This document shows, piece after piece, positions 4,033 to 54,070 of a stretch of 64,000 nucleotides of DNA. Both the position numbers and the translations under genes were made by a program. How positions within the stretch are numbered: position 1 is the stretch's first letter; every line of letters begins with the position of its first letter. This DNA is from Deltaproteobacteria bacterium (GTDB lineage: Bacteria > Myxococcota_A > Polyangia > DRWM01 > JAAZOP01): NCBI GenBank assembly GCA_016218815.1, contig JACRCX010000025.1, positions 237,389-301,388 on the forward strand. Direction: 5' to 3'. Below the pieces are notes generated by a model. It made no database searches. It was not told the origin of the DNA and was given only the letters and a program-made list of their open reading frames with translations.

Positions 4033-4075
4033 CAACCCTGAAATCCGCCATCGTCAACGGCGGATGTCAGGGTTG
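4033..4075. terminator. Long hairpin between convergent genes (candidate bidirectional terminator)
   Basis: caaccctgaaatccgcc (4033-4049) pairs with ggcggatgtcagggttg (4059-4075). This gives a 17-bp stem with one mismatch and a 9-nt loop, lying between the stops at 4019 (+) and 4132 (-). Confidence 0.6.
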
Positions 4076-4131
4076 TTCGACGGGACAAGGTCCGCGCGGG
4101 CCATCGTGTGGGGCCGCGAGCGGCCGCGCAC

Positions 4132-6480: not shown

Positions 6481-6504
6481 CGATGGACACCGATGGACAC
6501 CGAT
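6475..6504 (+). repeat. Family A element, copy 1 (aaccaccgatggacaccgatggacaccgat)
   Basis: 30 bp identical to the copies at 9881-9910 and 49806-49835. It contains a 10-bp unit duplicated in tandem. The mini-ORF ATG GAC ACC GAT GGA CAC CGA TAG spans 6483-6506. Confidence 0.95.
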
Positions 6505-6544
6505 AGGAACGAGGCCGGGAATGGAATCGCTCTTCGGATCCGAA

Positions 6545-6564
6545 CCGCGGGCTTCAGCCCGCGG
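6545..6564. repeat. Perfect 8-bp stem hairpin ccgcgggc-ttca-gcccgcgg
   Basis: Read directly from the sequence. It lies in the ambiguous leader region of the FG-GAP gene, 40 bp from family A copy 1. Confidence 0.8.
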
Positions 6565-6806
6565 CTGGACGGCGCCGGACAACGTGGGCAGGGCAGCCGC
6601 ACGCTGAAGCATGCGGTTCGGCGCTGATGGCCGGCGGCGGCGGAGAACCACGACGGCGAAGGTCCCGAGGACGGCGAGGAGCGTGGCGGACGCGAGGAGC
6701 GCACCAGGCAAGCCGCGCATCGGTACCTCCCTCCCGGGCAGAGCCCGTGGGGACAGTATAGCGGGGGAGCCCCGGGCGCGGTACCATGACGGGCGGAGGA
6801 AGGCCG

Positions 6807-8315: not shown

Positions 8316-8330
8316 GGGGCGGACGGGGCG

Positions 8331-8369
8331 GGAATCTCGCGCAGAGGCGCAGAGACGCAGAGACGCAGG
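8331..8369 (+). repeat. Family B tandem-repeat cassette, copy 1 (ggaatctcgcgcagaggcgcagagacgcagagacgcagg)
   Basis: A shared head (g)aaTCTCGCGCARAG is followed by 3 tandem CGCAGAG(A/G) units. It lies in the intergenic spacer upstream of the lipase gene. Confidence 0.9.
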
Positions 8370-8401
8370 ATATGATGGCGGGGCGAGGATCGAGGACGAC
8401 G

Positions 8402-9850: not shown

Positions 9851-9880
9851 GGCGAGCCGGGGTGAAGGGGTGGAAGAAAA

Positions 9881-9910
9881 AACCACCGATGGACACCGAT
9901 GGACACCGAT
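9881..9910 (+). repeat. Family A element, copy 2
   Basis: 30 bp identical to copy 1. The mini-ORF spans 9889-9912 and ends in TAA. The second ATG of the element (9899) opens the FGE-like ORF. Confidence 0.95.
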
Positions 9911-10879
9911 AAGGGGGGAGGAGAGAGGGAGAAGGACCAGACCGTCCGCGGGGCAGCGGCGCGTGTGGCGGTGCTGTCCCTGGGAATCGGGCTGGGGCTC
10001 GCGGCGTGCAGCGCGCTGACGGATTTCTCGCCGATCGACTCGGGGCCGCGGGACGACGGCGGGGCGGACGAGGTCGGGGTCGAGGACGGGGGCGGCGAGG
10101 GCGGGATGTCGTGCCACCCGGGACCCGATCCGTGCCCGGCGGGAACGAGCTACGTGCCTTGCGGTCCGGTGCTGCTGGGCAGCGACACGGGGGAAGGGGA
10201 CGGCGACGAGGAGCCGGAGCACGTGGTCGACGTGTCGGCCTACTGCATCGACACGAACGAGGTGACCAACGGGGCGTACGCGGAGTGCGTCACGGCGGGA
10301 GGTTGCACGGCCCCGCACGCCGACGGCTCGGCGACGCGGGCGTCGTACTACTCGCACCCGAGCTACTCGGCGTACCCGGTGATCGCCGTCGACCACGACC
10401 AGGCGGAGGCGTACTGCCGCTGGGTGGGCAAGCGGCTGCCGACGGAGGCGGAGTGGGAGAAGGCGGCGCGCGGGGGGTGCGAGATCGCGGCACCGGAGGG
10501 TTGCGGGTCGGAGGACGAGCGGACCTACCCGTGGGGCGAGGCCGAGCCGACCTGCACACTGGCGAACTTCGCGGGCTGCGCGGGCGACACGGACCGGGGC
10601 GGCGCGCGCCCGGACGGCGCAAGTCCTTACGGCGTGCAGGACCTGGCGGGCAACGCGCAGGAGTGGGTCGCCGACTGGTACGCGGCGACGATCTACGAGG
10701 CGTGCCGGGCGGGCGGCTGCGTCGACCCGCCGGGGCCCCCGACGGGCACGGAACGGGTCTTCCGCGGCGGGGCGTGGGAATCCGCGCAAGCGTACCTGCG
10801 CAACGCCAACCGCTTCCGCCAGGTCCCCGGGTACTCCGACGAGCACCTCGGCTTCCGCTGCGCGGCGCCGGTGCGGTAG
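9899..10879 (+). CDS. Formylglycine-generating enzyme (FGE-sulfatase/SUMF1) family lipoprotein
   Basis: Lipobox GLGLAACS. FGE-family blocks are RLPTEAEWEKAARGG, YPWG, GNAQEWVADWY, RVFRGGAW and HLGFRCA. The start is uncertain: ATG 9899 lies inside the repeat and there are internal GTGs. Confidence 0.8.
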   Translation: MDTDKGGGEREKDQTVRGAAARVAVLSLGIGLGLAACSALTDFSPIDSGPRDDGGADEVGVEDGGGEGGMSCHPGPDPCPAGTSYVPCGPVLLGSDTGEGDGDEEPEHVVDVSAYCIDTNEVTNGAYAECVTAGGCTAPHADGSATRASYYSHPSYSAYPVIAVDHDQAEAYCRWVGKRLPTEAEWEKAARGGCEIAAPEGCGSEDERTYPWGEAEPTCTLANFAGCAGDTDRGGARPDGASPYGVQDLAGNAQEWVADWYAATIYEACRAGGCVDPPGPPTGTERVFRGGAWESAQAYLRNANRFRQVPGYSDEHLGFRCAAPVR

Positions 10880-10882
10880 ACC

Positions 10883-11935
10883 CTAGCGAAACTCGATCTC
10901 GGCCACGAGGGGAAGGTGATCGGACAGCGGGCCGGCCTCGCGCACGACCCGCGCGGAGATCCGGCGCGCGTCGGCCGGGAACCAGATGTAGTCGAGCCGC
11001 CGGTTGGGGACGTCGGCGGGGAAGGTGAACGTCTCGGGGTTCGGGGTGTCCGGCGGGAGGGCCTCCTGGAGGCCGAGCGCGCGGACGGTGGCGATCGTGC
11101 GGTCGGTGGTCATGTCGGTCTCGGGCTCGTCCGGAAACCGCGCGCGCAGCGTGGCCTCGGGCGGGATGGCGTTGAAGTCGCCGAGCACGAGGCGGGGGCG
11201 GTCGAGCAGCGTGCGGACGCGGCGGACGAGCAGATCGGCGTGGCGTTCGCGATTGCGCTGGTGGAAGGCCTCGAGGTGGACGTTGACGACGTCGAGGGTC
11301 GAGCCGCCGCCGATCGAGAGCTCGACGTGCTGCAGGGCCCGGTGGAGGTAGAAGGCGTTGTACCAGAAGGGGTTCTCGTCGGGCTGGGGCAGGAGGTGCC
11401 GGACGTTGGAGGTGATGGGGAAACGTGAGAGGACGGCTTGGCCGGAGCGCATGCGGCCGTAGTGCTGGGACGGGGGCCAGTAGGGGAAGGGGAGGTAGCG
11501 GCAGTTCCAGGTCTCGACGCGAGCGGCCCAGGGGTAGCCGGCCTCGCGGGCGAGAAAGGCGACCTCGTCGATGCCGTGGGTGCGGGCGGCGCCGAAGTCG
11601 ACCTCCTGCAGGGCAACGACGTCGGCGTCGAGGGTGCGCAGCACGTGCGCGATACCGACGAGGTTGCGCCGGATGGTGGCCTCGTCGCGCAGATCGCCGA
11701 CGTCGTCCTTGCGCCCGCGGCCGTAGGCGATGTTCCAGGAGACGACGCGCAGGGGCCCGACGCGCGCGGCGGGCGCGCCGGCCGAGCGGTCGCCGCCGTA
11801 GCGCTCCGGGGGCACGCTCAGCGGATCGGTGTCGTCGAAGCCGGAGGATCCCCAGAGGTAGAACGCGACGAAGGCCACGATCAGGCCTCCCAGGACGAGG
11901 CCCGCGACGCGCGCGATGCGCAAGGCGAGCCGCAC
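10883..11935 (-). CDS. Endonuclease/exonuclease/phosphatase (EEP) family protein with N-terminal membrane anchor
   Basis: The tail of ORF 10883..12469 has normal composition from the GTG at 11935. A TM anchor (AGLVLGGLIVAFVAFYLW) is followed by LRVVSWNIAYG, VVALQEVD, LGDFNA and LSDHLPLVAEIEF. Confidence 0.75.
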   Translation of the reverse strand: MRLALRIARVAGLVLGGLIVAFVAFYLWGSSGFDDTDPLSVPPERYGGDRSAGAPAARVGPLRVVSWNIAYGRGRKDDVGDLRDEATIRRNLVGIAHVLRTLDADVVALQEVDFGAARTHGIDEVAFLAREAGYPWAARVETWNCRYLPFPYWPPSQHYGRMRSGQAVLSRFPITSNVRHLLPQPDENPFWYNAFYLHRALQHVELSIGGGSTLDVVNVHLEAFHQRNRERHADLLVRRVRTLLDRPRLVLGDFNAIPPEATLRARFPDEPETDMTTDRTIATVRALGLQEALPPDTPNPETFTFPADVPNRRLDYIWFPADARRISARVVREAGPLSDHLPLVAEIEFR

Positions 11936-11951
11936 GGAGCCGCCTCCGGCC

Positions 11952-12710
11952 TCACTGCTCGAAGAACATCGGGACGCGGCGTTTGAGGAAGGTCTCGATG
12001 GCGCGGCGGTCGTCGTCGCGGAGGTTGATGAACTTGAGGCCCATGCCGGGGGTGATGTCGGGGGTCTTGGGGTCGTAGTCGCGAACCCAGGAGACGCGGC
12101 CCTTGGCGGTGATCTGGCGGCCGCCGGGCAGCTCGAAGGTGAACAACACCTTGGCGCCGATCGGCTTGACGTCGAAGGTGGCGACGAACAGGCCGCCTTC
12201 GTCGAGGTTCTGGGTGAAGCCGCAGTAGAACTGCGTCTCGCTGTCGAGGGTGAGCTGCTGGAGGACGTTCCAGTTGATGGTGCGCGCGGGGACGTGCGTG
12301 CCGGCGAAGGCGCCCGGGGTGGCGTTGGCCAGGGAGGCCCGCTGCTCGGGCGGGAGCTGGGAAACCCGCTGCTTCTCCTCCTGGAAGCGCTTCTTGGCGT
12401 CCTGGACGATGGGGTAGAGCATCGCGAGGCACTTGGCGACGGCGCTGGCGGCGACCTGGGTCGTCGCACCGCCGCCCTGCACGTCCTGGAAGATCTGCAG
12501 GGCCTGGGCCAGGTGCTCCATCGACCCCTTCAGGATGCCGCCGCACTCGAAGCTGTCCGGCGCCTCCTTGGTGGCCTGGAACAGCAGGCCCTGCGCCTTG
12601 GCCAGCACTTGCGTGAGCCGGCCGAGCTGCGACTCGAGCGCGGGATCTCCCTGGGTCGCTTCGAGCGCCTGCATCAGGTACTCTCGTGCCGTCTGAGCAG
12701 GATGCGTCAT
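11952..12710 (-). CDS. PilZ-domain protein of the myxobacterial TIGR02266 type
   Basis: The ATG at 12710 opens the only normal-composition part of the 1102-aa ORF. The C-terminus reads NLDEGGLFVATF...GRVSWVRDY...PGMGLKFINLRDDDRRAIETFLKRR. Confidence 0.75.
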   Translation of the reverse strand: MTHPAQTAREYLMQALEATQGDPALESQLGRLTQVLAKAQGLLFQATKEAPDSFECGGILKGSMEHLAQALQIFQDVQGGGATTQVAASAVAKCLAMLYPIVQDAKKRFQEEKQRVSQLPPEQRASLANATPGAFAGTHVPARTINWNVLQQLTLDSETQFYCGFTQNLDEGGLFVATFDVKPIGAKVLFTFELPGGRQITAKGRVSWVRDYDPKTPDITPGMGLKFINLRDDDRRAIETFLKRRVPMFFEQ

Positions 12711-16997: not shown

Positions 16998-18740
16998 CTA
17001 CGGACCCATGAAATTGAAGCCGAGGGTGTAGTCGCCGACGGAGTCGCCGTAGGCGTCGACGATCGCGTAGTAGGTGCCGGCGGCGAGGACGCCGGTGATC
17101 GAGGAGTGGTACAGGGCGCCGGCGTCGTCGCTGCAGGCGAGGTCGGGGGCGGCGCAGTCGGAGGCGAGGGACAGGACCGTGTCGGGGAGGCCGGGGGCGA
17201 CCTCGGCGCCGAGGAGGTCGATGCTCACGCGGGCCGCGACGGCCAGGGTGAACGAGTAGACGACATCGGCCGAATCGTCGAGCTGGCAGCGCGGGGCGTG
17301 ATCGTCGCCGTCGGTCGCAGCGAGCGTCCCGGTGACGACCACGACGCCGCGGTCGCCCGACGGCAAGGCGATCGCGGCGGCGGACGCGCAGGTGGCGCCG
17401 CCGGCGAGGGGGGTCGCGGTGACGCAATCGGCGGCGAAGATGCATTCCACATCCGCGCAGTCGGTGTCGCCGTCGGCGTCCTCATCGATGCCGCCCGTGC
17501 AGAGCTCGTTTCCGGTGCACAACCCGTAGGTGGCATCGCAGTAGCCGGTGACGGCGCAGTCCGCGGCCGAAGAGCAGCTCGTCACGCAGGCATCGGCGGT
17601 GCCGTCGCTGTCGACGTCGACGCAATCGTAGCCCGGACGGCAGTCGGTCACGGTCGCGCAGGCGCCGAAGCAGCCGCAGGCGCCCGTGCTGACGCAGGCG
17701 CACCGGCTGCCGGTCGGGCACGCGATGGCCGTGCAATCGCCCGGGTCGGCCCATTGGCCGACGCAGGTGCCGCCGACCCAGCCCCAGCCGTCCTCGGTGA
17801 GGCAGGCGCCGGAGGCGCAGTCGGAGTTCCCGGCGCAGGCATCGCCACTTCCGGCCGAGCCGGTGGCGCAGGCGGCGTCGCCGGTGCAGTCGCGGTCGGC
17901 GCAGTCCACGAGCGTGTCGCCGTCGTCGTCCAGGGAGTCGCCGCAGTTTGTGTCGGTGCAGGCGGGGTCGCCGGCGCAGTCGGCGTCGTCACAGTCGGCG
18001 AGCAGGTCGAGGTCGTTGTCGACGCCGTCGTTGCAAACCTCGACGCAGGCCGGGGCGTCCGCGCACTGCGGGTCGTAGCAGTCGGCGAGGCCGTCGCCGT
18101 TGTCGTCGGTCCCGTTGTCGCAGACCTCCGCGACCCCGCATTCGACTTCCAGCGTGAACGCGCCCTCGGCTCCTTCCCAGCCGTCGACCACGACGTAGTA
18201 GAATTCGCTGCCCACCACGTCCAAGAACAGCGTCTCGGCCTCGCCGGCATCGCCGCCGTACGCGGCGTCCGTGCACAGGTCGAGCGAGCAGGTGGGCTGG
18301 AAGACGAAGAGGTCGAGGTCCTGGCCGGCGGTGGGTGTCATGGTGATGGTGACGACGCCGTCTTCCGTCGGCGCCAGCTCGTAGACCATTTCGGAACCCG
18401 TCCAGCTCGTCCCGCCGCCGCACGCTCCGTAGTCCTCGAATTCGTCGGGCTGGCCGGTCGTCGTCTCGGCGGTGAGATGCTCTCCGCAGGCCAGGGCGGC
18501 CGGCTCGTCGCAGCTTCCCGGAACGGCGCCGCCGTCGTCGGCGTCCGCGTCGGCGTCCACGTCCGTGTCGGCGTCCGCGTCGGCGTCCGCGTCGGCGTCC
18601 GCATCGGCGTCCGCATCGCCCCCGCCCTCCTCGGTCGCGACGTCGGCGTCGCCGTTGCCCGAGTCACCGCCGGGGCAGCCCCAGGCGCCGAAGGCAGCGC
18701 AGGCCGCGAGAGCGCACATCCTGGTCCAGTTCCTGAGCAT
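16998..18740 (-). CDS. Cys-rich secreted lipoprotein with two PPC-like (pre-peptidase C-terminal-like) beta domains
   Basis: ATG at 18740, signal/lipobox AFGAWGCPGG, and a (DA)n acidic linker. CxDGxDNDxD-type Cys repeats are present. The PPC-like blocks are VVTITMTP...YYVVVDGWEGAEGAFTLEVEC and VVYSFTL...YYAIVDAYGDSVGDYTLGFNF. Confidence 0.75.
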   Translation of the reverse strand: MLRNWTRMCALAACAAFGAWGCPGGDSGNGDADVATEEGGGDADADADADADADADADTDVDADADADDGGAVPGSCDEPAALACGEHLTAETTTGQPDEFEDYGACGGGTSWTGSEMVYELAPTEDGVVTITMTPTAGQDLDLFVFQPTCSLDLCTDAAYGGDAGEAETLFLDVVGSEFYYVVVDGWEGAEGAFTLEVECGVAEVCDNGTDDNGDGLADCYDPQCADAPACVEVCNDGVDNDLDLLADCDDADCAGDPACTDTNCGDSLDDDGDTLVDCADRDCTGDAACATGSAGSGDACAGNSDCASGACLTEDGWGWVGGTCVGQWADPGDCTAIACPTGSRCACVSTGACGCFGACATVTDCRPGYDCVDVDSDGTADACVTSCSSAADCAVTGYCDATYGLCTGNELCTGGIDEDADGDTDCADVECIFAADCVTATPLAGGATCASAAAIALPSGDRGVVVVTGTLAATDGDDHAPRCQLDDSADVVYSFTLAVAARVSIDLLGAEVAPGLPDTVLSLASDCAAPDLACSDDAGALYHSSITGVLAAGTYYAIVDAYGDSVGDYTLGFNFMGP

Positions 18741-18915: not shown

Positions 18916-21114
18916 TTAGGGAGCGGTGGTGGTGAGGGTGAGGGTGAAGCTGGGGATCGCGGTGGCGCCGGTGGCACGGACGGTGAGCACGTAGGCGCCG
19001 GCCGCAAGACTGTCGCCGGTCCAACCCTCGGCGGTCCCGGTCGCTGCGTGGGTGGCTACGGTGCCGCCGGCGTTGGTGATCGTGATGTCCGGATTGCCGG
19101 CGGTGGCGAGGGCGGCGCCGTCGAGCAGCACGGCGGCGCTGAAGGTGATGCCGTAGGCGACGGCGGCGCCGCCGGCGAGCGGGCCGCCGGTCTGCGGCGG
19201 AATGGTCTCCGCCGGGGCGAAGGTGCCGAGGGACGGGACGCTGGTACAGACGGACGGCATGACGCTGTTGTCGCAGCTCCAGCCGAACTCGACCTCGCAA
19301 CTGTTGGAACAGCCGTCACCCGGGGTCGTGTTCCCGTCGTCGCACTGCTCGGCGGTCGAGGTGTCGATGGTGCCGTCGCCGCAGGGCACCGGCGTGGCGG
19401 CGCTGACGCTGAGGGTGAAGGTGCCGCAGCCCTCGTAGGAGTCGGCGACGACGATGAAGGTGGTCGGCGTGGTCTCGAAGTTGAGCAGCGTGACGACCTC
19501 GGCAGCGGTGGTCTCGGCGTCCGCACCGACGACGCAGGAGGCGCCGAGCTGATCGGTGCAGTCGGTGGTGACCCACAGGGAGGCGTCGAAGGTGGTCGCG
19601 TCCATCGTGATCGTGACCATCGAGGAGGCCGGGACGGCGAGGCGGAAGAGCATCTCCTGGGCGGAGCTGGAGTAGCCCGTGCAGGTGGAGCCGCTGCCGG
19701 CGGCGTCGTAATCCGTGGTGCCGGTGCAGAGGTCGAGGCTGCCGCTGGAGCCGCCGGGGGCGATGGTGGTCGCGGGGCAGGTGAAGGTGTCACAGGTGCC
19801 GGTCTCGGGGTTCCAGATGAACCCGTCGTCGCAGGCGCAACGGAAGTCGTTGGCGTCGTTCTGGCACACGCCGGTGGAGTTTGCGACGGTGGTGCAGGGG
19901 TTGGTCGGCAGGCAGCCGTTCTCGTAGCAGGCGCCGGCGGCCGAGCAGTAGAGCGTGGAGCCGGGGTCGTTGCAGCCCGAGGTGGCGCAGTCCAGGATCG
20001 CCCAGCAGTACTGGACGGTGCCGGACTCGCCGCCGGTCTCGCAGGCCAAGCCGGCGGGGCAATCGGCGTCGGTCGAGCAGTCCTGGGCGCACATCAGGTA
20101 TGGGGTGCCGAACATGTCGAAGAGGGTGACGCCGACGCTGCCGGCATCGCCGTTGCACGGGCTTCCTTCGGCGGCGAAGTCGGGGCCGTTGGACTGGTAG
20201 CAGTTGCCGCCGCCGGACGGATCGCAGAAGGTGTCCATGCCCGGGGTGCCCGAGCCGGGGCAATCGGCGTCGACCTCGCAGGGCCCGCCCCAGACGGCGC
20301 CCGGCGGATAGCAGTGGTTGGTCGACTCGATGTAGGTCGCCGGATCGCAGGCGTCGCACGCGGCACAGGCGCCGGAGCAGCCGCCGGTCGCGTTGCAGGA
20401 CCGGTGGCTGGCGGGGCAGTCGAGGTCGGTGCAGGTATCGTAGACGCAGTCGGTGGCGTCGGGGTTGAGGTGCTCTCCCGTCGGGCAGCTGCAGAACCCG
20501 CTGGCCGCGGGGTATGCGTCGCAGTGCCCGGTCGAGGTGCACTGGGCGTCGTCGTCGCATTGGCCCCAGCAGACGCTGAAGTCGGTGAGATCGACACAGG
20601 TGTATCCCGGCCGGCAATCGGTCGCGGCCCCGCAGTCGGCGGCGCAGACGTTGACTCCTCCGACCGTCACGCACCAACCCTCGGTGCAGCCGCCGCTGGC
20701 GTCGCACTCGTCGACGCAGTACCCGCCGGGAAGGCCGGTGGCGAACTCGGTGCGGCACATGCCGGTCGTGCAGTCCGCATCGGCGAGGCAGGGTGCGCCC
20801 ACGCCTTCCGCGACGCAGGCGCCGGCGCCGTCGCAAGTTTCGCCGGTGTCGCACGTCGACTGGCACGTGGTGCCGACGCACTCCTCGCAATCGTCGGGGT
20901 TGCACGCCGGGTCGCAGGTCGTCTCCGTCTCGGGCTCCACGTCGCCGTCGGCGTCGGCATCCGCATCCGAGTCGGCGTCGCCGCCGCCCTCGGTCGTGTC
21001 GCCGTCCGCGACGTCGCCGTCCGCCGTGGAGCTGTCGTCGTCTCCGCAGCCGGCAAACGCGAGGGCGCCCATCCCGAGCAACAGGCCCAGCAGCATCCAT
21101 GTTTTCGAGGTCAT
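18916..21114 (-). CDS. Cys-rich secreted lipoprotein with myxobacterial Cys-rich repeat and PPC-like domain
   Basis: The ATG at 21114 follows AAGGAGAG, and there is a lipobox LAFAGCGDD. It contains CGDGTIDTSTAEQCDDGNTTPGDGCSNSCEVE (Myxococcus Cys-rich repeat style). It shares the ATDCRPGYTCVDL block with the neighbouring gene. Confidence 0.75.
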   Translation of the reverse strand: MTSKTWMLLGLLLGMGALAFAGCGDDDSSTADGDVADGDTTEGGGDADSDADADADGDVEPETETTCDPACNPDDCEECVGTTCQSTCDTGETCDGAGACVAEGVGAPCLADADCTTGMCRTEFATGLPGGYCVDECDASGGCTEGWCVTVGGVNVCAADCGAATDCRPGYTCVDLTDFSVCWGQCDDDAQCTSTGHCDAYPAASGFCSCPTGEHLNPDATDCVYDTCTDLDCPASHRSCNATGGCSGACAACDACDPATYIESTNHCYPPGAVWGGPCEVDADCPGSGTPGMDTFCDPSGGGNCYQSNGPDFAAEGSPCNGDAGSVGVTLFDMFGTPYLMCAQDCSTDADCPAGLACETGGESGTVQYCWAILDCATSGCNDPGSTLYCSAAGACYENGCLPTNPCTTVANSTGVCQNDANDFRCACDDGFIWNPETGTCDTFTCPATTIAPGGSSGSLDLCTGTTDYDAAGSGSTCTGYSSSAQEMLFRLAVPASSMVTITMDATTFDASLWVTTDCTDQLGASCVVGADAETTAAEVVTLLNFETTPTTFIVVADSYEGCGTFTLSVSAATPVPCGDGTIDTSTAEQCDDGNTTPGDGCSNSCEVEFGWSCDNSVMPSVCTSVPSLGTFAPAETIPPQTGGPLAGGAAVAYGITFSAAVLLDGAALATAGNPDITITNAGGTVATHAATGTAEGWTGDSLAAGAYVLTVRATGATAIPSFTLTLTTTAP

Positions 21115-24996: not shown

Positions 24997-26223
24997 ATGG
25001 ACGGCAAGCGCGCATTCCTCATCGTGCTCGACTCGGTCGGCTGCGGCGCCCTCCCCGACGCGGGCGCTTTCGGCGACGAGGGCACGGACACGCTGGGACA
25101 CGTCGCCGACTTCGCGGGCGGCCTCGCCCTCCCCCACCTCGGACGCCTGGGCCTGGGCAACCTGCACGCGGTGCGCGGCGTGCCGCCGGTCGAGCGGCCG
25201 GCGGCCTGCTGGGGCCGCATGGCGGAGCGCAGTCCGGGGAAGGACACGACGACGGGCCACTGGGAGATCGCGGGCGTGGCGAGCGACCGCGCGTTCCCGA
25301 CCTACCCGGACGGCTTCCCGCCGGAGATCGTCGAGCCGTTCGTCACGGGGACCGGACGCGGGGTTCTGGGCAACAGGGCCGCCTCCGGCACGGGCATCAT
25401 CGAGAAGCTGGGGCCGGAGCACCAGGCGACGGGCAAGTGGATCCTCTACACCAGTGCCGACTCGGTGTTCCAGGTCGCGGCCCACACCGCCACGATCCCG
25501 CTGGCGGAGCTGTATCGCGCCTGCGAGCTGGCGCGCCGGATCCTCGACCCCTTCCACGTCGGCCGGGTGATCGCGCGCCCGTTCGAGGGGGCGCCGGGCG
25601 CTTTCCGGCGCACGTACGACCGGCGCGACTACGCCATGCCGCCACCCCGCGCCACGGTGCTCGACCGACTGGCGGCCGCGGGGATCCCCGTGATCGGCGT
25701 GGGCAAGATCCACGACATCTTCGCGGGGCATGGCGTGACGGAATCGATCCATACCGAGGGCAACGACGACGGATGCGTGCGCACGCTCGAGCTGGCGCGG
25801 AAGGTGGAGGCCGGCCTGGTCTTCGTGAACCTCGTGGACTTCGACAGTTCCTACGGGCACCGCAACGACGCGCGCGGGTACGCCCGCGCGCTGGAGGCGT
25901 TCGACCGGCGCCTGGGGGAGCTGTTGCCGCTGCTCCGGCGCGACGACCTCCTGATGCTGACGGCGGACCACGGCTGCGATCCGACGACGCCGGGGACGGA
26001 CCACACGCGGGAGCACGTGCCGCTGCTCGCGATGCTCGCGGGCTCGACCGCGGGCCGGGACCTGGGAGTGCGTGCGACGTTCGCGGACGCCGGCGCGACG
26101 GTGGCCGAGCATTTCGGGGTGAATGGGCCGGGCGACGCCACGTCGTTTCTCGGGGAGTTGGGGGGGAGGGAATCTCGCGCAAAGCCCGCAAAGGAACGCA
26201 AAGGACGCAAAGAGGATGCATAG
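24997..26223 (+). CDS. deoB: Phosphopentomutase
   Basis: [22 protein letters not shown]...[10 protein letters not shown]...TTGHWE...[14 protein letters not shown]...[10 protein letters not shown]. The last ~17 codons are encoded by family B repeat copy 2. Confidence 0.85.
26168..26215 (+). repeat. Family B tandem-repeat cassette, copy 2 (gggaatctcgcgcaaagcccgcaaaggaacgcaaaggacgcaaagagg)
   Basis: It has the same head (gaatctcgcgcaRag) followed by CGCAAAG units. It overlaps the deoB 3' end and sits just upstream of the next start codon. Confidence 0.9.
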
Positions 26224-26245
26224 GGTCGGGACCGAAAGCGGGCCC

Positions 26246-29200
26246 ATGGCCAGGACGGCCGGGTGGGCGTCGATCGTGCTCGTCGCAGCCTCGATCTGCG
26301 CTTGTTCGAAGGGCGGGGGCCGGGGGGCGGGCCCGGGTGAGGCCGGGCCGACGGTCGACGACGACGCGGTGGGGCGGATGGTGGGTCGGTTGCGGGACCC
26401 GGGGACGCGCGAGAGCGGGTTGCAGGAGCTGGAGGGGCTGCTGGCCCAGATCGGCTCGTCGCAGGATCCGGGCATCCGGCGCGACAGCTTCGGCTCGCTG
26501 GCCACGCGCACGACATCGGCGCTGATCGAGGCGTTCGTGGACGAGCGGACGAGCGCGGCGGTGCGGGCGCGCATCGTCGTCGCGCTCGGGATCGTGGAGC
26601 CGCACGACGGCGACGCGGCGCGACGCGGCGCGGTGCTCGACCGGGTGTTCCTGCCGACGCTGGGGGAGCGGTTCGCGAGCGGGGCGACGGCGTCGGAGGC
26701 GCACGCGGCGCTGCTGGGCCTGCTGGAGCTGGCGGCGCCCTCCGCGGGTCCGCCGGTTTCCGGACCGGCGCTCGTGCGGGCGGCGGAGGCGGTGCGGGGG
26801 GCCGTGCGGGAGCTGTTGCGGGGGGATCGCACGCCGGTGCCGGCGGAGACGACGCCGGCAGCGGGAGTGCCGTATGTCAGCGAGGAGGATCTGCTGCTGG
26901 CGTGCCTGCACGCCACGGAAACGCTGCTCGACGTTCCGGGCGGGAGGGTGGCGGAGGCGGCGGGGCTCGAGACGGTGGGGGCGCCGCTGCGGGATTCCTC
27001 GCCGGCGGTTCCGGTGTCGGCGCGGCTGGCGGCGGCGGAGGCGGCGGGGCGGTTGTCGCAGCGGGTGAGCCAAGAGAGTGCGCCGGCGACGGCGGAGGCG
27101 CTGGTCGCGGGACTGTTCGTGCCGGCGGGCGGCGCCGAGGATGCGGTCGAGCTGCGGCTGGCGATCCGCAGGGCGATGATGCAGGCGAGCGCGCGGGGCG
27201 CGGGTTGGCGCGACGCGGTGGTCCGCGAGCTGTTGCGGGTGCTGGCGGCGGTGGCGGATCCGGCGCTCCTGGAGCGGACCGAGGCGTGGAAGGCGATGGG
27301 ACCGAACCGGGACGTCGCGAGCGTGGCGGCGCCGGGCGTCATCCTGCGGCGGGCGACGGGCGCGCTGGCGGACGTGCTTCCGCGGGGCGGGGAAGACGGA
27401 ACCGACGCTCCCGCGGACGCGCCGACGGCGCTCGCGGTCTCCGTGCTGCGATCGGAGATCGTGCTGGCGGCAGGCGCCATCACGCGCGGGGGCGAGGCGC
27501 TGGCCGGGGACGCGGGCGAGGCCACGATCGCGTGGGCCCTTGCCGCAGCCGACACGCTGGCGGCGGTGGGCGCGGCGGGGCCCGACGGCCAGAACGTCGA
27601 CCTGCTGGCATCGCTGGTGCGCGCGGCGGCGACGAACCTGCGGGCGCTGCCGTCGCCGCCTGCGGCTCTCGCCGGCGGCGCGGCGGTCCCGGGCGCCGGG
27701 GGGCGCGCCGTCTTCGCCGGGCTGCTCGAATCGCTGATCCGCTTCGGCCGCCCGACGCCGCAGACGCTCGTCGTGCTGGCCGACCTGGCGGCGCGCCCGA
27801 GCCTGACGGGCGTCCGCGAGGACGCGATCTTCCCGCCGTCGCGGGCCGAGGGTGTGGACGAGGACGCGGCGTTCGTTCGTGGCCGGGCCGCGCGAGCGTT
27901 CCTCGCGCTGTACCGGCGGGGCCTCCCGGGCACCGCGGAGGCCGAGCCGCCGGCGGAGGCGCTGCGGCTCCGCCTGGAGCGGGTCGAGCCGCTCCTGGCG
28001 CTGGAGCAGACGGACGCCGCGCGGGCTCCGTTCCGGCTCTGGCCGCCGCCCTTCGCCGTGGAGGAGGCGCCGGCGCCCGGGGCGATCGACTTCGCGGACT
28101 ATGCCGACGCGCTGGCGGCCTGCGCGCTGCCGGCGCCGGAGAACCCCGGGCACGTCGCGGCCTGGCAGGCAATGTCCGACGCCGACCGGGAGCGGTACTG
28201 CCGGGTCCGGATCGAGTCGTTCGGCCGCGAGCCCGCGCCCCCCCAGGAGGGTTTCGTGCCGGATCCGATGGAGCTGGCGGACGAGCGCTGCTGGGACGTG
28301 ATGCGGCGGGCGTACCAGCGCGAGGCGCAGTTCTGTTCGGCGCGGGATGCGCGGCGGACTCCGGACTTCGAGCTGCCCTTGACTGCGCCGCAGTGCCGGC
28401 AGGTGATGCTTCGCGAGAGCGCGCTGGGGACGTGCTTCAGCCTGCCGCGGCATCCGGACCGGCTGGAACGGGGGCAGCCGTCGCTGTGGGCGTGCTACGA
28501 GCGGTTCCCGTGGCTGCGGGAGCGCGAGCCGGTGGGTCCTGCCTGCCGCGGCCTGGCGGCGCGGATTCTCGCGGCGCGGCTGTTCGTCCGCTTGCGGGAG
28601 CAGACCGGGACGCCGGCGGCGGACGGTGCGACGCCGGCGCGACTGGAGGCGATCCTGCCCTTCGCGGACTTCCTCGCGCGCCTCGCCTCGCCGGGGGCGG
28701 CCGGCGACGACGCGTTCGTGAGCGCGCTCGAGCGGACGACGGCGGTGCTAGCCGAGGTGCAGCTCGACGTTCCGGTGTTCCGCCCGCCGCAGAGCCCGAT
28801 CGAGCGCGTGGTGCTCAACGTTCCGGCCGGCGCGTCGCGGGAGGCGACGGAGGACGAGGCGGAGCTGATTCCGGTCCCGTGGTACGAGCGGCCGGGATTC
28901 GTCGAGCGTCGCGCGACGACCTTCGCGGCGTTGCGCGAGGACTTCCGCAGGGCCTGCGGCGCGCCGGCGGACGACCCGCGGGGGCCGTGCGCGCCGGGCG
29001 GCGGAAACCTGGACGAGGAGCTGCAGGCGCCCGGTCCGGACGCGACGGGCGGCTCGATGGCGGCGGTGCTGGTCGAGGAGAGCCTGCCGGCGCTGCTGGC
29101 GGCGCTGGCGGCCACGGACGCGATCGACCTCCGCTGCTTCGCGGAGGGCGCCTACGGCGCCGAGTGCCTGCACGGCGTCATCGTCGAGCGGGCGGCGGCG

Positions 29201-29425
29201 AGCGCGGAGCGCGAGCGGGCGCTGCGACTGCTGCTGGCGCTCGACTTCGAGGACGACGTATCGCTGCGCGAGGCGTTGCTGGGATTGGCGGCGGCGCCGG
29301 CCGACCCGCTGGTCGAGCCGCTGCTGGGGTTCGCGCTGCGGCGCCTGGCGGTCGAGTGCCCTGCCTGCCCCGGCTCGCCGGGGTGCGGGGCGGGGCGGTG
29401 CGAGGCGTTGCGGTTCGGGGAGTGA
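26246..29425 (+). CDS. Large lipoprotein of unknown function (1059 aa, alpha-helical/HEAT-like by composition)
   Basis: ATG at 26246, lipobox AASICACSKGG. The frame is long, Leu/Ala-rich and of normal composition with high GC3. I recognise no catalytic motif. Confidence 0.65.
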   Translation: MARTAGWASIVLVAASICACSKGGGRGAGPGEAGPTVDDDAVGRMVGRLRDPGTRESGLQELEGLLAQIGSSQDPGIRRDSFGSLATRTTSALIEAFVDERTSAAVRARIVVALGIVEPHDGDAARRGAVLDRVFLPTLGERFASGATASEAHAALLGLLELAAPSAGPPVSGPALVRAAEAVRGAVRELLRGDRTPVPAETTPAAGVPYVSEEDLLLACLHATETLLDVPGGRVAEAAGLETVGAPLRDSSPAVPVSARLAAAEAAGRLSQRVSQESAPATAEALVAGLFVPAGGAEDAVELRLAIRRAMMQASARGAGWRDAVVRELLRVLAAVADPALLERTEAWKAMGPNRDVASVAAPGVILRRATGALADVLPRGGEDGTDAPADAPTALAVSVLRSEIVLAAGAITRGGEALAGDAGEATIAWALAAADTLAAVGAAGPDGQNVDLLASLVRAAATNLRALPSPPAALAGGAAVPGAGGRAVFAGLLESLIRFGRPTPQTLVVLADLAARPSLTGVREDAIFPPSRAEGVDEDAAFVRGRAARAFLALYRRGLPGTAEAEPPAEALRLRLERVEPLLALEQTDAARAPFRLWPPPFAVEEAPAPGAIDFADYADALAACALPAPENPGHVAAWQAMSDADRERYCRVRIESFGREPAPPQEGFVPDPMELADERCWDVMRRAYQREAQFCSARDARRTPDFELPLTAPQCRQVMLRESALGTCFSLPRHPDRLERGQPSLWACYERFPWLREREPVGPACRGLAARILAARLFVRLREQTGTPAADGATPARLEAILPFADFLARLASPGAAGDDAFVSALERTTAVLAEVQLDVPVFRPPQSPIERVVLNVPAGASREATEDEAELIPVPWYERPGFVERRATTFAALREDFRRACGAPADDPRGPCAPGGGNLDEELQAPGPDATGGSMAAVLVEESLPALLAALAATDAIDLRCFAEGAYGAECLHGVIVERAAASAERERALRLLLALDFEDDVSLREALLGLAAAPADPLVEPLLGFALRRLAVECPACPGSPGCGAGRCEALRFGE

Positions 29426-29452
29426 ATTCCGCGAGGTGAGCCATCCGATTCC

Positions 29453-29548
29453 GGAGTTCGCGCAAAGGGCGCAAAGGGACGCAGAGGGCGCAAAGGGGGG
29501 CGGCGGGGGGAGGGAACAGGGAACAGGAAACAGGAGACGGGAGACGGG
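29453..29548 (+). repeat. Composite tandem-repeat block: family B copy 3 (29453-29498) plus GGGAACAG/GGAGACG repeats (29511-29548)
   Basis: ggagttcgcgcaaagggcgcaaagggacgcagagggcgcaaagggg ... agggaacagggaacaggaaacaggagacgggagacggg. It lies immediately upstream of the ATPase gene. Confidence 0.9.
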
Positions 29549-29659
29549 CAGTGTTCAGGGGGGCGGCATCGGGAACTTCCCGGCGGCTTGTCCGGACACG
29601 GGGCGCCGTGTTACGGATCACATCGTCCCGGCAGCACGAGGACCGGGCAGGAGGCCGGC

Positions 29660-30724
29660 GTGATCGAGCAGATCTACGTGGTGAACTTCGGCTGCCTCCG
29701 GGTGGTGAAGGCTCGACTGACGCCCCTTCATGCGTTCATCGGTCCCAACGACACGGGCAAGAGCTCGATGCTCCGGGCGCTGGAACTGGTCGTGCTGGCG
29801 GCCGGTCGATCTCCGTCACGGCCTTTGGTCGGCGTCGGCTACAACCGCTTGGCGGCCCAAGTAGAGGATCGACTGGTTCAGGCTGGCGTTCCCGGGGGTG
29901 CTTCGTACTCCGTCGGGCGGAATGGCAAGCGCCTTTTCGAGGGTGTGACTGCGCCGAGCGGCGGTGGCAAGCAGGAGCCGATGGCCGACCTGATGACCTC
30001 GCAACTGCTGGGTGAACTCGGGGCGGCCGGGCCGTATCGCGTGCTGGTGGAGAATCTTCGCGGCGTGCGCCTGCTGCGGCTCGATCCGGACGCGCTGCGG
30101 TTGGCGAGTACCCTGCTGCCGGAGGGGTCATCGATCGGTTTCGCCGACGAGCGGGGGAGCGGGCTGCCGGGCGTGTACGACGCGATCATGAATCGTGGCG
30201 ACGATTCCTTCCGGAGCGTTGCGGACGACGTCCGGACGCTGTTCCCCACGGTGAAGAACCTGCGACTCAAGACCATCTCGCCGTCCACGAAGGTGATCGA
30301 GGTGGAGTTGACGGATGGGAAGAAGGTGACGGCGGACGAGATGAGCGAGGGACTCCTCTACTACCTCGGCTTTGCCGCCATCGGGTACCTCGAACCGACA
30401 TCCCTTCTGCTCGTCGAGGAGCCGGAGAACGGCCTGCATCCGTCCCGGATCGCGGATATCATTCACGCCTTGCGTGCGATCTCGGAGCGGGGCACGCAGG
30501 TCGTAATGGCGACCCACAGCCCGCTGGTGATCAACGAATTGCGACCGGAAGAGGTCACGGTGTTCACGCGCGACGCCGAGAAGGGCACGATCGTGACGCC
30601 GATTCTGGAAACGCCGCGCTTCGCCGAGCGCTCGCAGGTGTACGGTCTTGGCGAGTTGTGGCTGGCCTATGCGAACGGCAAGGACGAGGGTCCGCTGCTG
30701 GGCGGCGAGGGAACGTCGGCGTGA
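29660..30724 (+). CDS. ABC/AAA_21-type (OLD/PARIS-AriA-like) ATPase, no fused nuclease domain
   Basis: GTG at 29660. Walker A is GPNDTGKSS, Walker B/D-loop is LLLVEEPENGLHP, and the H-loop-like block is VVMATHSPLV. GC3 is visibly lower than in the flanking genes. Confidence 0.8.
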   Translation: MIEQIYVVNFGCLRVVKARLTPLHAFIGPNDTGKSSMLRALELVVLAAGRSPSRPLVGVGYNRLAAQVEDRLVQAGVPGGASYSVGRNGKRLFEGVTAPSGGGKQEPMADLMTSQLLGELGAAGPYRVLVENLRGVRLLRLDPDALRLASTLLPEGSSIGFADERGSGLPGVYDAIMNRGDDSFRSVADDVRTLFPTVKNLRLKTISPSTKVIEVELTDGKKVTADEMSEGLLYYLGFAAIGYLEPTSLLLVEEPENGLHPSRIADIIHALRAISERGTQVVMATHSPLVINELRPEEVTVFTRDAEKGTIVTPILETPRFAERSQVYGLGELWLAYANGKDEGPLLGGEGTSA

Positions 30725-31329
30725 GAGTGCTCCTCGCTGGCGAAGGGCCCACCGAGCTGGGTGATTGGCACAGGGAGCGGGCGTGGCGGCCCTCTCCGTG
30801 CGCTCCCGGCGTCGTCGAGGCGCTGGCGCGGGGGGTCGGCGACGGCGACTGGGTGATCGCGGACGCCGTTTCCTGGAAGTCCATCCGCAAGTACCGCCCG
30901 GGCGGGCACCGCCACGCGGAGGCGCGCAACGTTCTGGGGGTGGTCCTGATGGCCCGGGAACGTGGCATGGACGCCGTGTTGTTCGTGCGGGATCGCGATG
31001 GGCTGCCGGAGCGCGGCGCCGACGTGGAGACGGGAATGCGGGCGGCCGCCGGGAACCGCGATTTCAGAGGTGTGGCGATCGTGGGTGGAATCGCGGTCGA
31101 GGCCATCGAGGCATGGCTGCTCGCGTGGCTGGGAGAGCCGCGGACCGAAGAGGCGACAAACCCGAAGGCCGAGTTGGCGCGGCGGGGTTATGGAAGCTGC
31201 GAAGCCAAGGTCAGCCTGGTCCGCGAGCACGACGCGGCCGGCATACCGGAGGACGCGCAATCGCTCCGCACGTGGCTGGACCGTGTCCGACGGGTGTTCG
31301 GTCCAGCCGCGGAGCCGGTCTCCGGCTGA
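30721..31329 (+). CDS. DUF4276-like / Toprim-like protein (predicted nuclease partner of the ATPase)
   Basis: The GTG at 30721 overlaps the ATPase TGA (GTGA). The N-terminal VLLAGEGPTE supplies a Toprim-type Glu, FVRDRDG is DxD-like, and AVEAIEAWLLAWLG matches my recollection of the DUF4276 signature. Confidence 0.6.
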   Translation: MRVLLAGEGPTELGDWHRERAWRPSPCAPGVVEALARGVGDGDWVIADAVSWKSIRKYRPGGHRHAEARNVLGVVLMARERGMDAVLFVRDRDGLPERGADVETGMRAAAGNRDFRGVAIVGGIAVEAIEAWLLAWLGEPRTEEATNPKAELARRGYGSCEAKVSLVREHDAAGIPEDAQSLRTWLDRVRRVFGPAAEPVSG

Positions 31330-31459
31330 CGGCCGTGCATGGACAATTCGCCCTCCGCTCGGCAGTCGTTGACGTTCCGCCGGAACGCGGGCGCGGATCC
31401 GCGACCATGTTCTGCGGCGCGGTCAAAAAGCGGTCGGGGTGCAGGCCGGAGACCCGTTG

Positions 31460-33310
31460 CTACGGCGGCCCGACGGGGAGGGAGAGGGCGCAGGCGGGGT
31501 CGGCGAAGGGGTAGAGGTCGGCGACGGCGCGGAGCATGGCGGCGGCGTCGGTTCGGACGCGGTCGTGCAGGAGGGTGCGGCGCGCCTCGAGCGCGGTTTT
31601 CGCGGCTTCCTGCTCCTGGGCGGTGGTTTCCCGCCAGTCGCATTGCTGGCCCATGTTGGGCAGGACGCGGCAGTCCTGGACGCGGTTCACGCCCGCCAGC
31701 TCGCGGTCGATCATCCAGTCGATGTTGGCGAGGGCCCGTTGCGAAAGCTCGGCTTCGCTGCCGAGGGCGCCGGCGGCCAGGTCCGGCGTGTCGCCGACGG
31801 TGAACTGCGTGGCGCCGTTCGCGTCCTTGAACTCGATCTGGAACCGTCCCGGGGCCTGGGCGAAGGAATCCTGCTCGACGTACAGCTCGACGGTCCCGTC
31901 GGGCTCCAGCGGGTGGCGGGCGCGGGCATAGAAGCCGTCGGCCGGCTGGGTCTCGAAGGTTTCGTGGTTCGTACCCACCTCGATGCCGCGGCTCGTCCGG
32001 TCGTTGCCCGCGACGCCCGCCTCGCGCTTCAGGTAGCCGCCGGCGCGGCTCCAGTCGAGCGCTTGGGGCTCACGGCCCGCGTCCCGCTGGTGCGCCGACC
32101 AGCACTCGACCACACGCTGGATGTGCTCGGACGTCCGGCGCGTGACCGGCATGTCCAGGATCGACAGCACGTCCGGATCAGGGACACCCGCGTCCGCGGG
32201 CGGCCGGAAATCGCGGCTGCAGTTGACGGCGTTGTCCCGCCGCGCGCCGCCGATGGTCGCGCCGAGGTGCACCATGAGGCGGCCGTTCTGGACGTTGTAG
32301 CCGAGGTTCATCCCGCTGCAGTCCTGCGTCGAGGAGATCCAGTCGCGCTCCGGATCCTTGTACCGCTCGTCGCAGACGAATCCGTGCCCGGCGCCTTCGT
32401 CGATCGTGCCGACGACCCAGCCCTTCACGTCGGCGGGCGGAGCCAGGAAGAAGGTGAAGTTCGCGCACCAGACGCCCTCGAGCGCCTCGCAATCCATCAT
32501 CTGGACGGACTGTCCCGACATTCGCTGCGCGAGGAACTCGGGCACGACGGTCGTCCGCAGCCGCAGGAGCACCATCGGATACGGCGCGAACGCCTCGGTG
32601 AAGGTGCCGAACGGGGGCGCGGGCAGGGCCAGGCCGTACTCGAGCGTCACCGACGCGGGGAAGGTGCAGGGCGGCGTGCAGCCCGGCATTTCCTCGTGGT
32701 GGGCGTCGCGGCAGGTGAAGGCGACGACCCGCTTGATCCCGCTCACCGTTGATTCGTAGGCCGTCTCGCCCTCTTCGGATTCGCCGGGCATCGGGGAGAA
32801 GCCCGCCGCGGCCAGCGAAGCACGGACGGCGGCGGCGAGCTCCGCGCACGGCTCGCGCTCGGGCACGGTCTGGAGCCTCGCGTGCGCGACCAGGGAGTCG
32901 GGCGTGCGCGTGAGGTCAGGGGCGGCGCCGGCGACCGACGCCTGCGGCACGGCGGCCGCCCGCATCACATCGACGGCCCACGCCGGCGGCCACGTCTCGC
33001 CGCCGCCCTCCAAGCCCATCAGCCAGCGTGCGTAGGGCTCGGTCGTGGCGGCGGCGGCCTGGAGCCGCCGGGCCAGCTCCGGATCCTGCACGGCGATCGG
33101 TGCGGGCGTGCCGGACTCGGTGCCTGCGGCGCCGTCGGCTTCCAAGGGCGGAGGGGGCGGGACGTCCGCGGGGGCGGCGGGACCGGCCTGGTCGGCGGCC
33201 GTGCCCGGCTTCCGGGTGCAGGCTCCGCAGCTCGCGCCGAGCACGAGCAGCCCGAGCGCCGCGACGGCACGTCGATTCCGCAGTCCCGCGGCACCCTGTA
33301 CTTCCGGCAT
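31460..33310 (-). CDS. Lipoprotein of unknown function (616 aa)
   Basis: ATG at 33310, lipobox VLGASCGAC and a Pro-rich linker. Composition is normal and I recognise no domain. Confidence 0.6.
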   Translation of the reverse strand: MPEVQGAAGLRNRRAVAALGLLVLGASCGACTRKPGTAADQAGPAAPADVPPPPPLEADGAAGTESGTPAPIAVQDPELARRLQAAAATTEPYARWLMGLEGGGETWPPAWAVDVMRAAAVPQASVAGAAPDLTRTPDSLVAHARLQTVPEREPCAELAAAVRASLAAAGFSPMPGESEEGETAYESTVSGIKRVVAFTCRDAHHEEMPGCTPPCTFPASVTLEYGLALPAPPFGTFTEAFAPYPMVLLRLRTTVVPEFLAQRMSGQSVQMMDCEALEGVWCANFTFFLAPPADVKGWVVGTIDEGAGHGFVCDERYKDPERDWISSTQDCSGMNLGYNVQNGRLMVHLGATIGGARRDNAVNCSRDFRPPADAGVPDPDVLSILDMPVTRRTSEHIQRVVECWSAHQRDAGREPQALDWSRAGGYLKREAGVAGNDRTSRGIEVGTNHETFETQPADGFYARARHPLEPDGTVELYVEQDSFAQAPGRFQIEFKDANGATQFTVGDTPDLAAGALGSEAELSQRALANIDWMIDRELAGVNRVQDCRVLPNMGQQCDWRETTAQEQEAAKTALEARRTLLHDRVRTDAAAMLRAVADLYPFADPACALSLPVGPP

Positions 33311-53749: not shown

Positions 53750-53901
53750 CGGCACGACCTCCTCCCGCCGCTCGGCCCCCTCCACGCGCGTGCGGGCCGC
53801 CGCAGCGTCGCCATTCGTCTACCCTACCACACCGCACTCCGCAACCGCGCCCGCCCGCGGCCTGCCCAGGCCTCCGCCCGGACCAACAACTCGACCCGGA
53901 C

Positions 53902-53935
53902 GACCAACCAAGAACCAAGAACCAAGAACCAAGAA
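53902..53935 (+). repeat. Family C tandem repeat, copy 2 (gaccaaccaagaaccaagaaccaagaaccaagaa)
   Basis: Four AACCAAG units lie in the divergent spacer between the PEGA gene and the STPK-like gene. Confidence 0.9.
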
Positions 53936-54070
53936 TTCTTCCACCATCGACTCCCGATCGTTGATCCCGCCCCCCTTCGCACCTACACTGCCGGACGGCA
54001 TGTGCGCTCCTGCGGCTCGAAGCGGGGGCCGGTTCGATACCGTCGAGTCGCACATCAGCCCGCGAAGACG

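Follow-up and report, generated by a model that had tools for sequence, protein, structure and literature searches.

In a 64,000-nucleotide stretch of contig JACRCX010000025.1 from a Deltaproteobacteria bacterium (GenBank assembly GCA_016218815.1; hereafter the window), we identified two adjacent genes, A and B, which form a self-contained two-gene operon. The pair is a divergent, mostly myxobacterial branch of a module that is already known as HEC-01 and as Mad3-Mad4. The reading that we favour, with reasonable but far from complete confidence, is that A and B constitute a HEC-01-like, ATP-gated nuclease pair of Toprim type, and that this pair is probably defensive.

The stop codon of A and the start codon of B share a GTGA tetranucleotide (Table 1), an overlap indicating likely translational coupling of the two genes. 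Both start codons are preceded by plausible ribosome-binding sites, GGAGG at 29650–29654 (5 nt before the start of A) and GAGGGA at 30707–30712 (8 nt before that of B), and both are well supported because the N-termini agree with those of homologs. The arrangement is not due to chance, because the two genes are kept as a pair in dozens of genomes. The GC content at third codon positions (GC3) was 0.82 for A and 0.81 for B compared with 0.91–0.93 in the four adjacent genes, and the local GC content in 400-nt windows dropped from ~0.77 to 0.63–0.68 at the pair. A preliminary description of this DNA, made from its letters and reading frames, had reported two overlapping reading frames with more A/T-ending codons than their neighbours; the coordinates, the overlap, the codon bias and every motif quoted for A and B were reproduced in our analysis.

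A contains the Walker A, signature, Walker B/D-loop and H-loop motifs of an ATP-binding cassette (ABC) ATPase. In 64 homologs sharing 46–71% identity, the invariant residues included G28..K34-S35 of Walker A, S229-E-G231 of the signature, E253-E254-P-E-N-G-L-H260-P of the Walker B/D-loop and T285-H286-S-P of the H-loop. Pfam comparison identified AAA_21 (1.1e-28) and AAA_15 (4e-20). The best PADLOC match was a HEC-01A model (PDLC04182, 6.5e-31), and seven more HEC-01A models matched at 1e-20 to 1e-29; the other PADLOC matches were AriA (3.3e-27), Old (1.1e-23), GajA (9.5e-18), mad3 (4.8e-17), PDC-M07A, PDC-M25A, NsnB and PtuA. The top NCBIfam match was MAD3 (1.6e-34), at 119.8 bits and so under the 420-bit equivalog cut-off of that model, and the sequence comparison with the PDB returned OLD (6p74) at 1.7e-9.

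The AlphaFold2 (AF2) model of A, with a predicted local distance difference test score (pLDDT) of 90.0, corresponds to an ABC head that is compact and has no long coiled coil. Among PDB folds, Foldseek ranked PtuA from Septu and retron effectors closest to this model (E down to 3e-14, TM ~0.5); SMC heads and the OLD nuclease of Thermus scotoductus (6p74, 1.2e-11) came next. The A clade also features a strongly conserved C-terminal motif, Y-x-LGELW-x-Y-x-x-G-x-DE-x-PL. Its LGELW core is common to four plasmid ATPases that directly precede bona fide DUF4276 genes, which ties A to the DUF4276-partnered ATPase clade. Based on these motif, family and fold matches, A is an ABC ATPase of the OLD/PARIS/Septu type with no attached nuclease domain, as the preliminary description had proposed.

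Toprim domains are defined by a glutamate after strand 1 and a DxD motif after strand 3. The AF2 model of B (pLDDT 90.6, predicted template modelling score 0.87) is composed of four beta-alpha units and a helical C-terminal region. Strand 1 (residues 2–7) runs into G7-E8-G9 and strand 3 (residues 85–91) ends in R90-D91-x-D93, so that the glutamate and the RDxD motif are placed as in Toprim. R90, D91 and D93, along with R98, W52 and W132, were invariant in 68 of 68 full-length copies from species genomes. E8 was present in all 66 sequences covering that position, whereas E130 and E143 were mostly conserved.

For the family of B, a word-indexed search retrieved 19 close homologs, and a full profile search then identified 818 representative clusters (50% identity) at E≤1e-3, including 304 at ≤1e-30. 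Those listed with an annotation were all "hypothetical protein", and none had a precomputed Pfam domain. Of the Toprim-like families in Pfam, DUF4276 alone was matched, by six of 145 family members at E≤0.01 (best 5.6e-5). PADLOC comparison of the same 145 members gave 53 matches to HEC-01B (PDLC04210, best 9e-7), 35 to PDC-M25B and one to mad4; a single member of the closer set of 19 matched RloB. As reference DUF4276 proteins we used four plasmid-encoded proteins annotated by PGAP, which match the Pfam family at 3.6e-28 to 9.4e-60. The hidden Markov model (HMM) of the B family matched the Meiothermus protein of this set (Pfam 3.6e-28) with per-sequence E values of 1e-6 to 3e-6, and the alignment was in register, pairing VVVVDRDDD with vFvRDrDxD and IEELEAWYFA with vEaIEAWllA. 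Judged by these alignments, the B family is a distant relative of DUF4276 and HEC-01B, a relationship visible at the family level only.

DUF4276 has been classed as Toprim (PMC12065111), a conserved metal site resembling that of OLD is present in HEC-01B (10.1101/2024.01.29.577857), and these two independent papers put DUF4276 and HEC-01B in Toprim on structural grounds. Based on the placement of its motifs, on the family-level homology and on these two studies, B is probably Toprim-like.

The HEC-01 module, named in PADLOC as "Hma-embedded candidate 01", comprises the ABC ATPase HEC-01A and the TOPRIM-like HEC-01B (Payne et al., bioRxiv 10.1101/2024.01.29.577857). Both HEC-01 and the window pair feature an ATPase of ~350–400 aa followed by a protein of ~200 aa, and the similarity extends to the best PADLOC match of A and to the 53 HEC-01B matches within the B family. 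One member of this family (L059) also lies between HmaB and HmaC. As with most candidates on the shortlist of that study, where HEC-01 is listed, the window clade appears not to be enriched beside other defence genes. However, B of the window reached just E=0.045 against HEC-01B, and neither the window copy nor the 36 other sampled loci are embedded in an Hma or other multi-gene defence system. The window clade is largely restricted to Myxococcota, mostly stands alone in ordinary chromosomal surroundings and is syntenic across Sorangium species.

Mad3 and Mad4 belong to the methylation-associated defence system (MADS) of P. aeruginosa, in which deletion of mad3 or mad4 lowers phage resistance, whereas removal of mad5 is possible only in combination with mad2 or mad3 (10.1101/2023.03.30.534895). 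Genetic support for a module of this kind comes from MADS alone (10.1101/2023.03.30.534895), and MADS3-4 has been counted among the ABC + TOPRIM systems (PMC11464382, Fig. 6c). In Mad3-Mad4, as in A-B, an ABC ATPase of the AAA_15/21 class is paired with a DUF4276-type protein; of the NCBIfam models MAD3 matches A best, and the PADLOC models mad3 and mad4 match A and one B-family member, respectively. The MAD3 score of A is nevertheless far below the cut-off (119.8 versus 420 bits), and no methyltransferase, kinase or other mad gene accompanies the window pair. Whereas MADS comprises Mad1-8, with mad6-8 mandatory, the window pair stands alone and falls outside that system. The name HEC-01 applies when the module is stand-alone or lies within Hma or restriction-modification systems, and Mad3-Mad4 when it is part of MADS. 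The preliminary description had presented the pairing of an ATPase with a DUF4276-type protein as more novel than it is, given these two publications. Its further statement that the pairing has no defined trigger or mechanism is correct.

The DUF4276 pairs of the Meiothermus, Piscirickettsia, Nostoc and Aeromonas plasmids share with A and B the gene order, the overlapping frames and the LGELW core of the ATPase. In the Meiothermus protein, VVDRDDD and EELEAW align with FVRDRD and EAIEAW of the B family. They differ in that B of the window scores under the Pfam threshold and that three of the four plasmid proteins lack RDxD at that position.

PARIS, which consists of the ABC ATPase AriA and the DUF4435 Toprim protein AriB (PMC11464382), is similarly split into an ABC ATPase and an effector of Toprim type encoded by adjacent genes, and AriA models match A. 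In contrast to PARIS, neither B nor its family matched DUF4435 or AriB in Pfam or PADLOC, A is ~150 residues shorter than AriA (55 kDa), AriA was outside the top 50 structural matches of A, and the window clade is not borne by phages or satellites. OLD and GajA have a related ATPase head (PADLOC Old 1.1e-23, GajA 9.5e-18; PDB 6p74) and would share the proposed Glu + DxD logic, whereas A and B are separate polypeptides, neither of which matches Toprim_OLD of Pfam, and have no helicase partner of the GajB type. In the case of Septu and retron PtuA-PtuB, PtuA chains are the best folds for the A model and both systems pair an ATPase with a small nuclease; however, the PtuB partner is an HNH nuclease, PtuA is larger and the sequence likeness is limited to the ABC core. 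These comparisons suggest that A-B would work like a split OLD/PARIS-type system and that by membership it is nearest to HEC-01 and Mad3-Mad4.

PARIS offers the best mechanistic template, since its ATPase scaffold sequesters the nuclease until triggered (PMC11464382). On the model of PARIS, Septu and OLD/Gabija, A would dimerise or oligomerise around ATP and hold B inactive within a complex. Some foreign cue, perhaps a protein of a phage, foreign nucleic acid or altered nucleotide levels, would shift the nucleotide state of A. B would then be released or activated, with E8, D91 and D93 binding Mg2+, and would cut nucleic acid, either DNA or tRNA/RNA, so that the invader or the infected cell might be stopped.

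The distribution of the pair was analysed with the ATPase alignment against one genome per species, which gave at least 576 loci, of which the best 80 were examined. These 80 were almost all from Myxococcota, including Sorangium, Polyangium, Nannocystis, Byssovorax, Kofleriaceae and many metagenome-assembled genomes (MAGs). B followed A in 72 of them, and the 4-bp overlap was the commonest arrangement. The same A-B arrangement was found on metagenome contigs, with the 4-bp overlap in L004, L007, L009 and L010. Outside a single Sorangium site, to which we return below, nearly all loci had unique flanks and a pair GC3 0.05–0.15 below that of the flanks; this group includes the window copy and a second Sorangium copy (L055). 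The low GC3 and the unrelated neighbours in most lineages point to horizontal movement of the pair as a two-gene unit, with fixation in a single genus. Among the matches listed, L004 was the most closely related to the window copy (A 71% and B 64% identical). The L004 pair also adjoins a DUF3160 gene, which is only 48% identical to the DUF3160 gene of the window; constraint acting on the pair and a later transfer would each be compatible with this comparison.

Association with defence systems was observed for one member of the family and for bona fide DUF4276 pairs. In L059, a family member (A 2e-128 and B 4e-81 against the family HMMs) is located between HmaB (3.7e-114) and HmaC (9.8e-127). 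This locus (35–12510) belongs to a groundwater Deltaproteobacteria MAG with an Hma system, in which A-B lies downstream of an HmaA fragment and of a 577-aa OLD/GajA-like AAA_15/21 ATPase, the second module embedded there. HEC-01 was originally defined in such a setting. Of the bona fide DUF4276 pairs, one was found within a type I restriction-modification operon (L012) and another between a methylase and a helicase gene (L014). L012 (1–6516) corresponds to the Meiothermus taiwanensis plasmid pMtWR-220, where two modules are inserted between hsdS and hsdR, one of them DUF4433 with a macro domain (DarT/DarG-like) and the other the AAA ATPase with DUF4276.

Several results weigh against a defensive Toprim-type nuclease pair, and some of them concern B. 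B alone scored 11.6 bits (E=0.33) against Pfam DUF4276 (PF14103), for which the gathering threshold is 30.2 bits, and E=0.045, below significance, against PADLOC HEC-01B (PDLC04210) and PDC-M25B. It had no NCBIfam match, and neither B nor the 145-sequence family profile matched any PDB sequence. The hhalign comparison of the B family with the four-sequence DUF4276 alignment gave E=0.0016 with a probability of just 16% and covered the C-terminal half alone. Foldseek comparison of the confident B model with the PDB and BFVD returned no significant match and no Toprim structure in the top 50. Of the preliminary assignments for B, the distant DUF4276 relationship and the Toprim-like placement of Glu and RDxD hold, although the protein itself is far under the DUF4276 threshold and no Toprim structure emerged from the fold search. 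The proposal of a two-component ATP-driven nuclease is partly supported. To our knowledge, a complex, nuclease activity or trigger has been demonstrated for no member.

The other points against the favoured reading concern context. When HEC-01 was tested in E. coli, it did not protect against the phages used (10.1101/2024.01.29.577857). Besides L059, comparison of 71 immediate neighbours from 37 non-redundant loci with PADLOC identified only generic Ser/Thr kinase and sigma-54 activator models; this rough and informal comparison, based on crude gene calls and made without a control set, speaks against a strong enrichment in defence islands. The enrichment of homologous pairs near known defence genes, one of the expectations whose failure the preliminary description had named as refuting its proposal, is nearly refuted, with 36 of 37 loci lacking defence neighbours and one case embedded in Hma. 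Among nine neighbouring window proteins we found no integrase and no recognisable defence gene, and the 64-kb window contains no tRNA, in agreement with the earlier description. No close relative was identified on IMG/VR viral contigs, and a phage origin was rejected on this ground. Lastly, in 14 Sorangium species A-B occupies one perfectly syntenic locus with a GC3 of 0.95–0.98, equal to that of the flanks, and such syntenic, host-like retention is unusual for defence cargo. The foreign islet of the preliminary description is apt for a tightly coupled, compositionally foreign pair such as that of the window but not for Sorangium, where the locus is stably inherited.

The Sorangium locus, with its intact genes and retained catalytic residues, is also an argument for a different view, namely that the pair is a resident genome-maintenance system of myxobacteria in which an ATPase-controlled nuclease would act on self DNA or RNA (repair, recombination or RNA processing) with no part in immunity. 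The non-defence neighbours in the 37 loci, the ordinary chromosomal neighbours in the window, the lack of close relatives on viral contigs and the published HEC-01 test all fit such a role. Against it, outside Sorangium the flanks differ nearly everywhere and the pair GC3 is lowered, which is typical of horizontally moving accessory genes, and B is broken or truncated in several loci. In addition, an Hma defence system harbours one member, every one of the closest ATPase relatives belongs to a defence system, and Mad3 and Mad4 are needed for MADS defence. We consider a maintenance role unlikely.

A number of variant loci bear on a second alternative. In L021, L032, L050, L052, L063 and L081, B is truncated or split (B region about 8900–9700) and A is intact, which could reflect errors of MAG assembly or the genuine decay of a gene that may be toxic. 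In L001 to L003 it is the ATPase gene itself that was called short or in two pieces. L006 (3926–5384) contains a B homolog (P0013) without an upstream ATPase, followed by a small open reading frame and a PIN-domain gene in a toxin-antitoxin-like arrangement. The selective disruption of B and the B homolog beside the PIN gene would suit a selfish addiction module resembling a toxin-antitoxin pair, in which B is a putative toxic nuclease, A its ATP-dependent restrainer and defence at most a side effect. The compact two-gene unit with its 4-bp overlap, unrelated neighbours and foreign composition would be in keeping with this, and the Pfam entry for AAA_21 speaks of a putative AbiEii toxin belonging to type IV toxin-antitoxin systems. 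However, we observed no mobility or plasmid context for the window clade, the long syntenic retention in Sorangium can be explained without addiction, and the broken B genes come from metagenome bins and could be assembly errors. We consider an addiction module unlikely as well.

In L077 (8936–10056), L088 (9071–9475), L091 (7477–8572) and L093 (2375–3546), an ATPase of the same clade is followed by a helical protein of ~135 aa, and in L077, L091 and L093 the next protein, of ~220 aa, carries a conserved H...C motif (GL-x-C-x-S..LA-x-F..VG-x-PL-x-D). These partners were considered as divergent B proteins and rejected, since they had no HMM, Pfam or PADLOC match. The unrelated partners in four sister loci imply that the partner of the ATPase is exchangeable, and the alternative partners may represent an effector swap. 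That B is not a nuclease at all, being instead a hydrolase of another kind or an adaptor that lacks catalysis, built on a generic three-layer alpha/beta fold and acting with the ATPase on a target other than nucleic acid, would agree with this exchange of partners, with the lack of a PDB sequence match and with the best, non-significant Foldseek hits (lumazine synthase, esterases and Rossmann-like enzymes rather than Toprim), yet it is very unlikely given that E, RDxD and R are invariant and located where strands 1 and 3 end, as in Toprim, and given the homology of the family to DUF4276/HEC-01B, both placed in Toprim (PMC12065111; 10.1101/2024.01.29.577857).

Table 1. Features of the A-B locus, in coordinates of the 64,000-nucleotide window
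Feature	Residues	Window position	Strand	Remarks
Upstream intergenic region, presumed promoter region of the pair		29426–29659	+	three tandem arrays and GGAGG
Tandem array, 9 nt x4.1		29460–29497
Tandem array, 7 nt x3.4		29511–29534
Tandem array, 7 nt x2.3		29533–29548
Gene A, ABC-type ATPase	354 aa	29660–30724	+	GTG start; AAA_15/AAA_21
Walker A, GPNDTGKSS	A 28–36	29741–29767	+
Signature, MSEG	A 228–231	30344–30352 (S-E-G)	+
Walker B/D-loop, LLLVEEPENGLHP	A 249–261	30404–30442	+
H-loop, VVMATHSP	A 281–288	30500–30523	+
GTGA shared by the A stop and B start codons		30721–30724	+	A stop codon 30722–30724
Gene B, DUF4276-related, putative Toprim-like nuclease	202 aa	30721–31329	+	GTG start
GEGPTE (GEG-x2-E)	B 7–12	30739–30756	+	E8 at 30742–30744
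FVRDRDG (F-x-RDRD)	B 88–94	30982–31002	+	D91, D93
AVEAIEAWLL (EAIEAW)	B 125–134	31093–31122	+

The genes upstream of the pair in the window encode a Ser/Thr kinase (two genes upstream), a metalloenzyme-superfamily protein and a hypothetical protein of 1100 aa. Downstream, on the opposite strand, are genes for a 640-aa hypothetical protein, a VIT-VWA protein, DUF3160 and DUF4349. No methylase was identified among these neighbours, which appear to be ordinary chromosomal genes.

The 96-bp block of tandem repeats that the preliminary description had placed before A is real; it consists of three short arrays and is not specific to the A-B module. A block of (CGCAAAGG)n plus a G-run was also found at 26160–26213, upstream of the preceding gene. 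The G-run and four (CGCAAAGG) units occur both there and at 29453–29548, in the two intergenic regions flanking the 1100-aa gene (26123–29425), with the order of the two parts swapped between the copies and four matches compared with 0.07 expected by chance. Further intergenic regions of the window bear short tandem repeats of their own (6466–6505, 9872–9911, 49797–49836, 47403–47449 and 53885–53945; 64–95% identity). The recurring elements ACCACCGATGGACACCGATGGACACCGATA and (AACCAAG)n resemble a genome-wide family of intergenic repeats. We rejected the upstream repeats as a component of A-B, given that the neighbouring gene has the same block in front of it and that other intergenic repeats abound. 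Scans of the intergenic regions detected no sigma-70-like promoter or terminator, and the A-B region had no Rfam match.

Both genes are bracketed by an imperfect 35-nt direct repeat (29476–29510 and 31476–31510; 77% identity) with a spacing of exactly 2000 nt. This repeat is probably due to chance in G-rich DNA, but it could mark insertion boundaries. A metagenome scan for an empty site with the downstream 640-aa protein yielded no relative. Elsewhere in the window, coding repeats were located at 17450–18630, 20930–21030, 52050–52210 and 56700–57850 in large proteins of secreted type, either Asp-rich (GAC/GTC) or made up of FG-GAP/VCBS-like units (W-G-D-x-D-N-D-G-D). These are typical myxobacterial surface proteins and are unrelated to A-B.

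Modules that combine an ABC ATPase with a Toprim protein, such as OLD, Gabija and PARIS, are a major theme of bacterial immunity. A-B is a divergent, so far unannotated branch of this known module and not a new principle. For the DUF4276 branch (HEC-01 and Mad3-Mad4) we know of no established trigger, substrate or structure, and the sole stand-alone test that we are aware of was negative. The interest of the window pair lies in this unsolved mechanism, in the size and taxonomic focus of its clade and in the contrast between mobile copies and the copy fixed in Sorangium. A further scenario, to which we assign a very low likelihood, is domestication of the pair in Polyangia, most clearly in Sorangium, to serve a core function that is passed on vertically, the low-GC3 copies elsewhere representing its mobile ancestors. 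Were this true, ATP-gated cleavage of self nucleic acid could operate in repair, in the stress response or in the developmental and kin-related cell death typical of myxobacteria, and an OLD-like split nuclease would for the first time have a housekeeping role. The exchange of B partners in sister loci would then mark the ATPase as a general-purpose switch.

The natural contrasts within the clade, between the mobile low-GC3 and the syntenic Sorangium copies, together with the Hma-embedded copy and the partner-swapped sister loci, could help to tell apart roles in defence, addiction and housekeeping. A large branch of the family, concentrated in Myxococcota and amounting to at least 818 clusters (50% identity) and no fewer than 576 genome loci, escapes the Pfam and PADLOC models now in use. 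Addition of this clade to defence-finder models would alter the inventories of defence systems in myxobacterial genomes.

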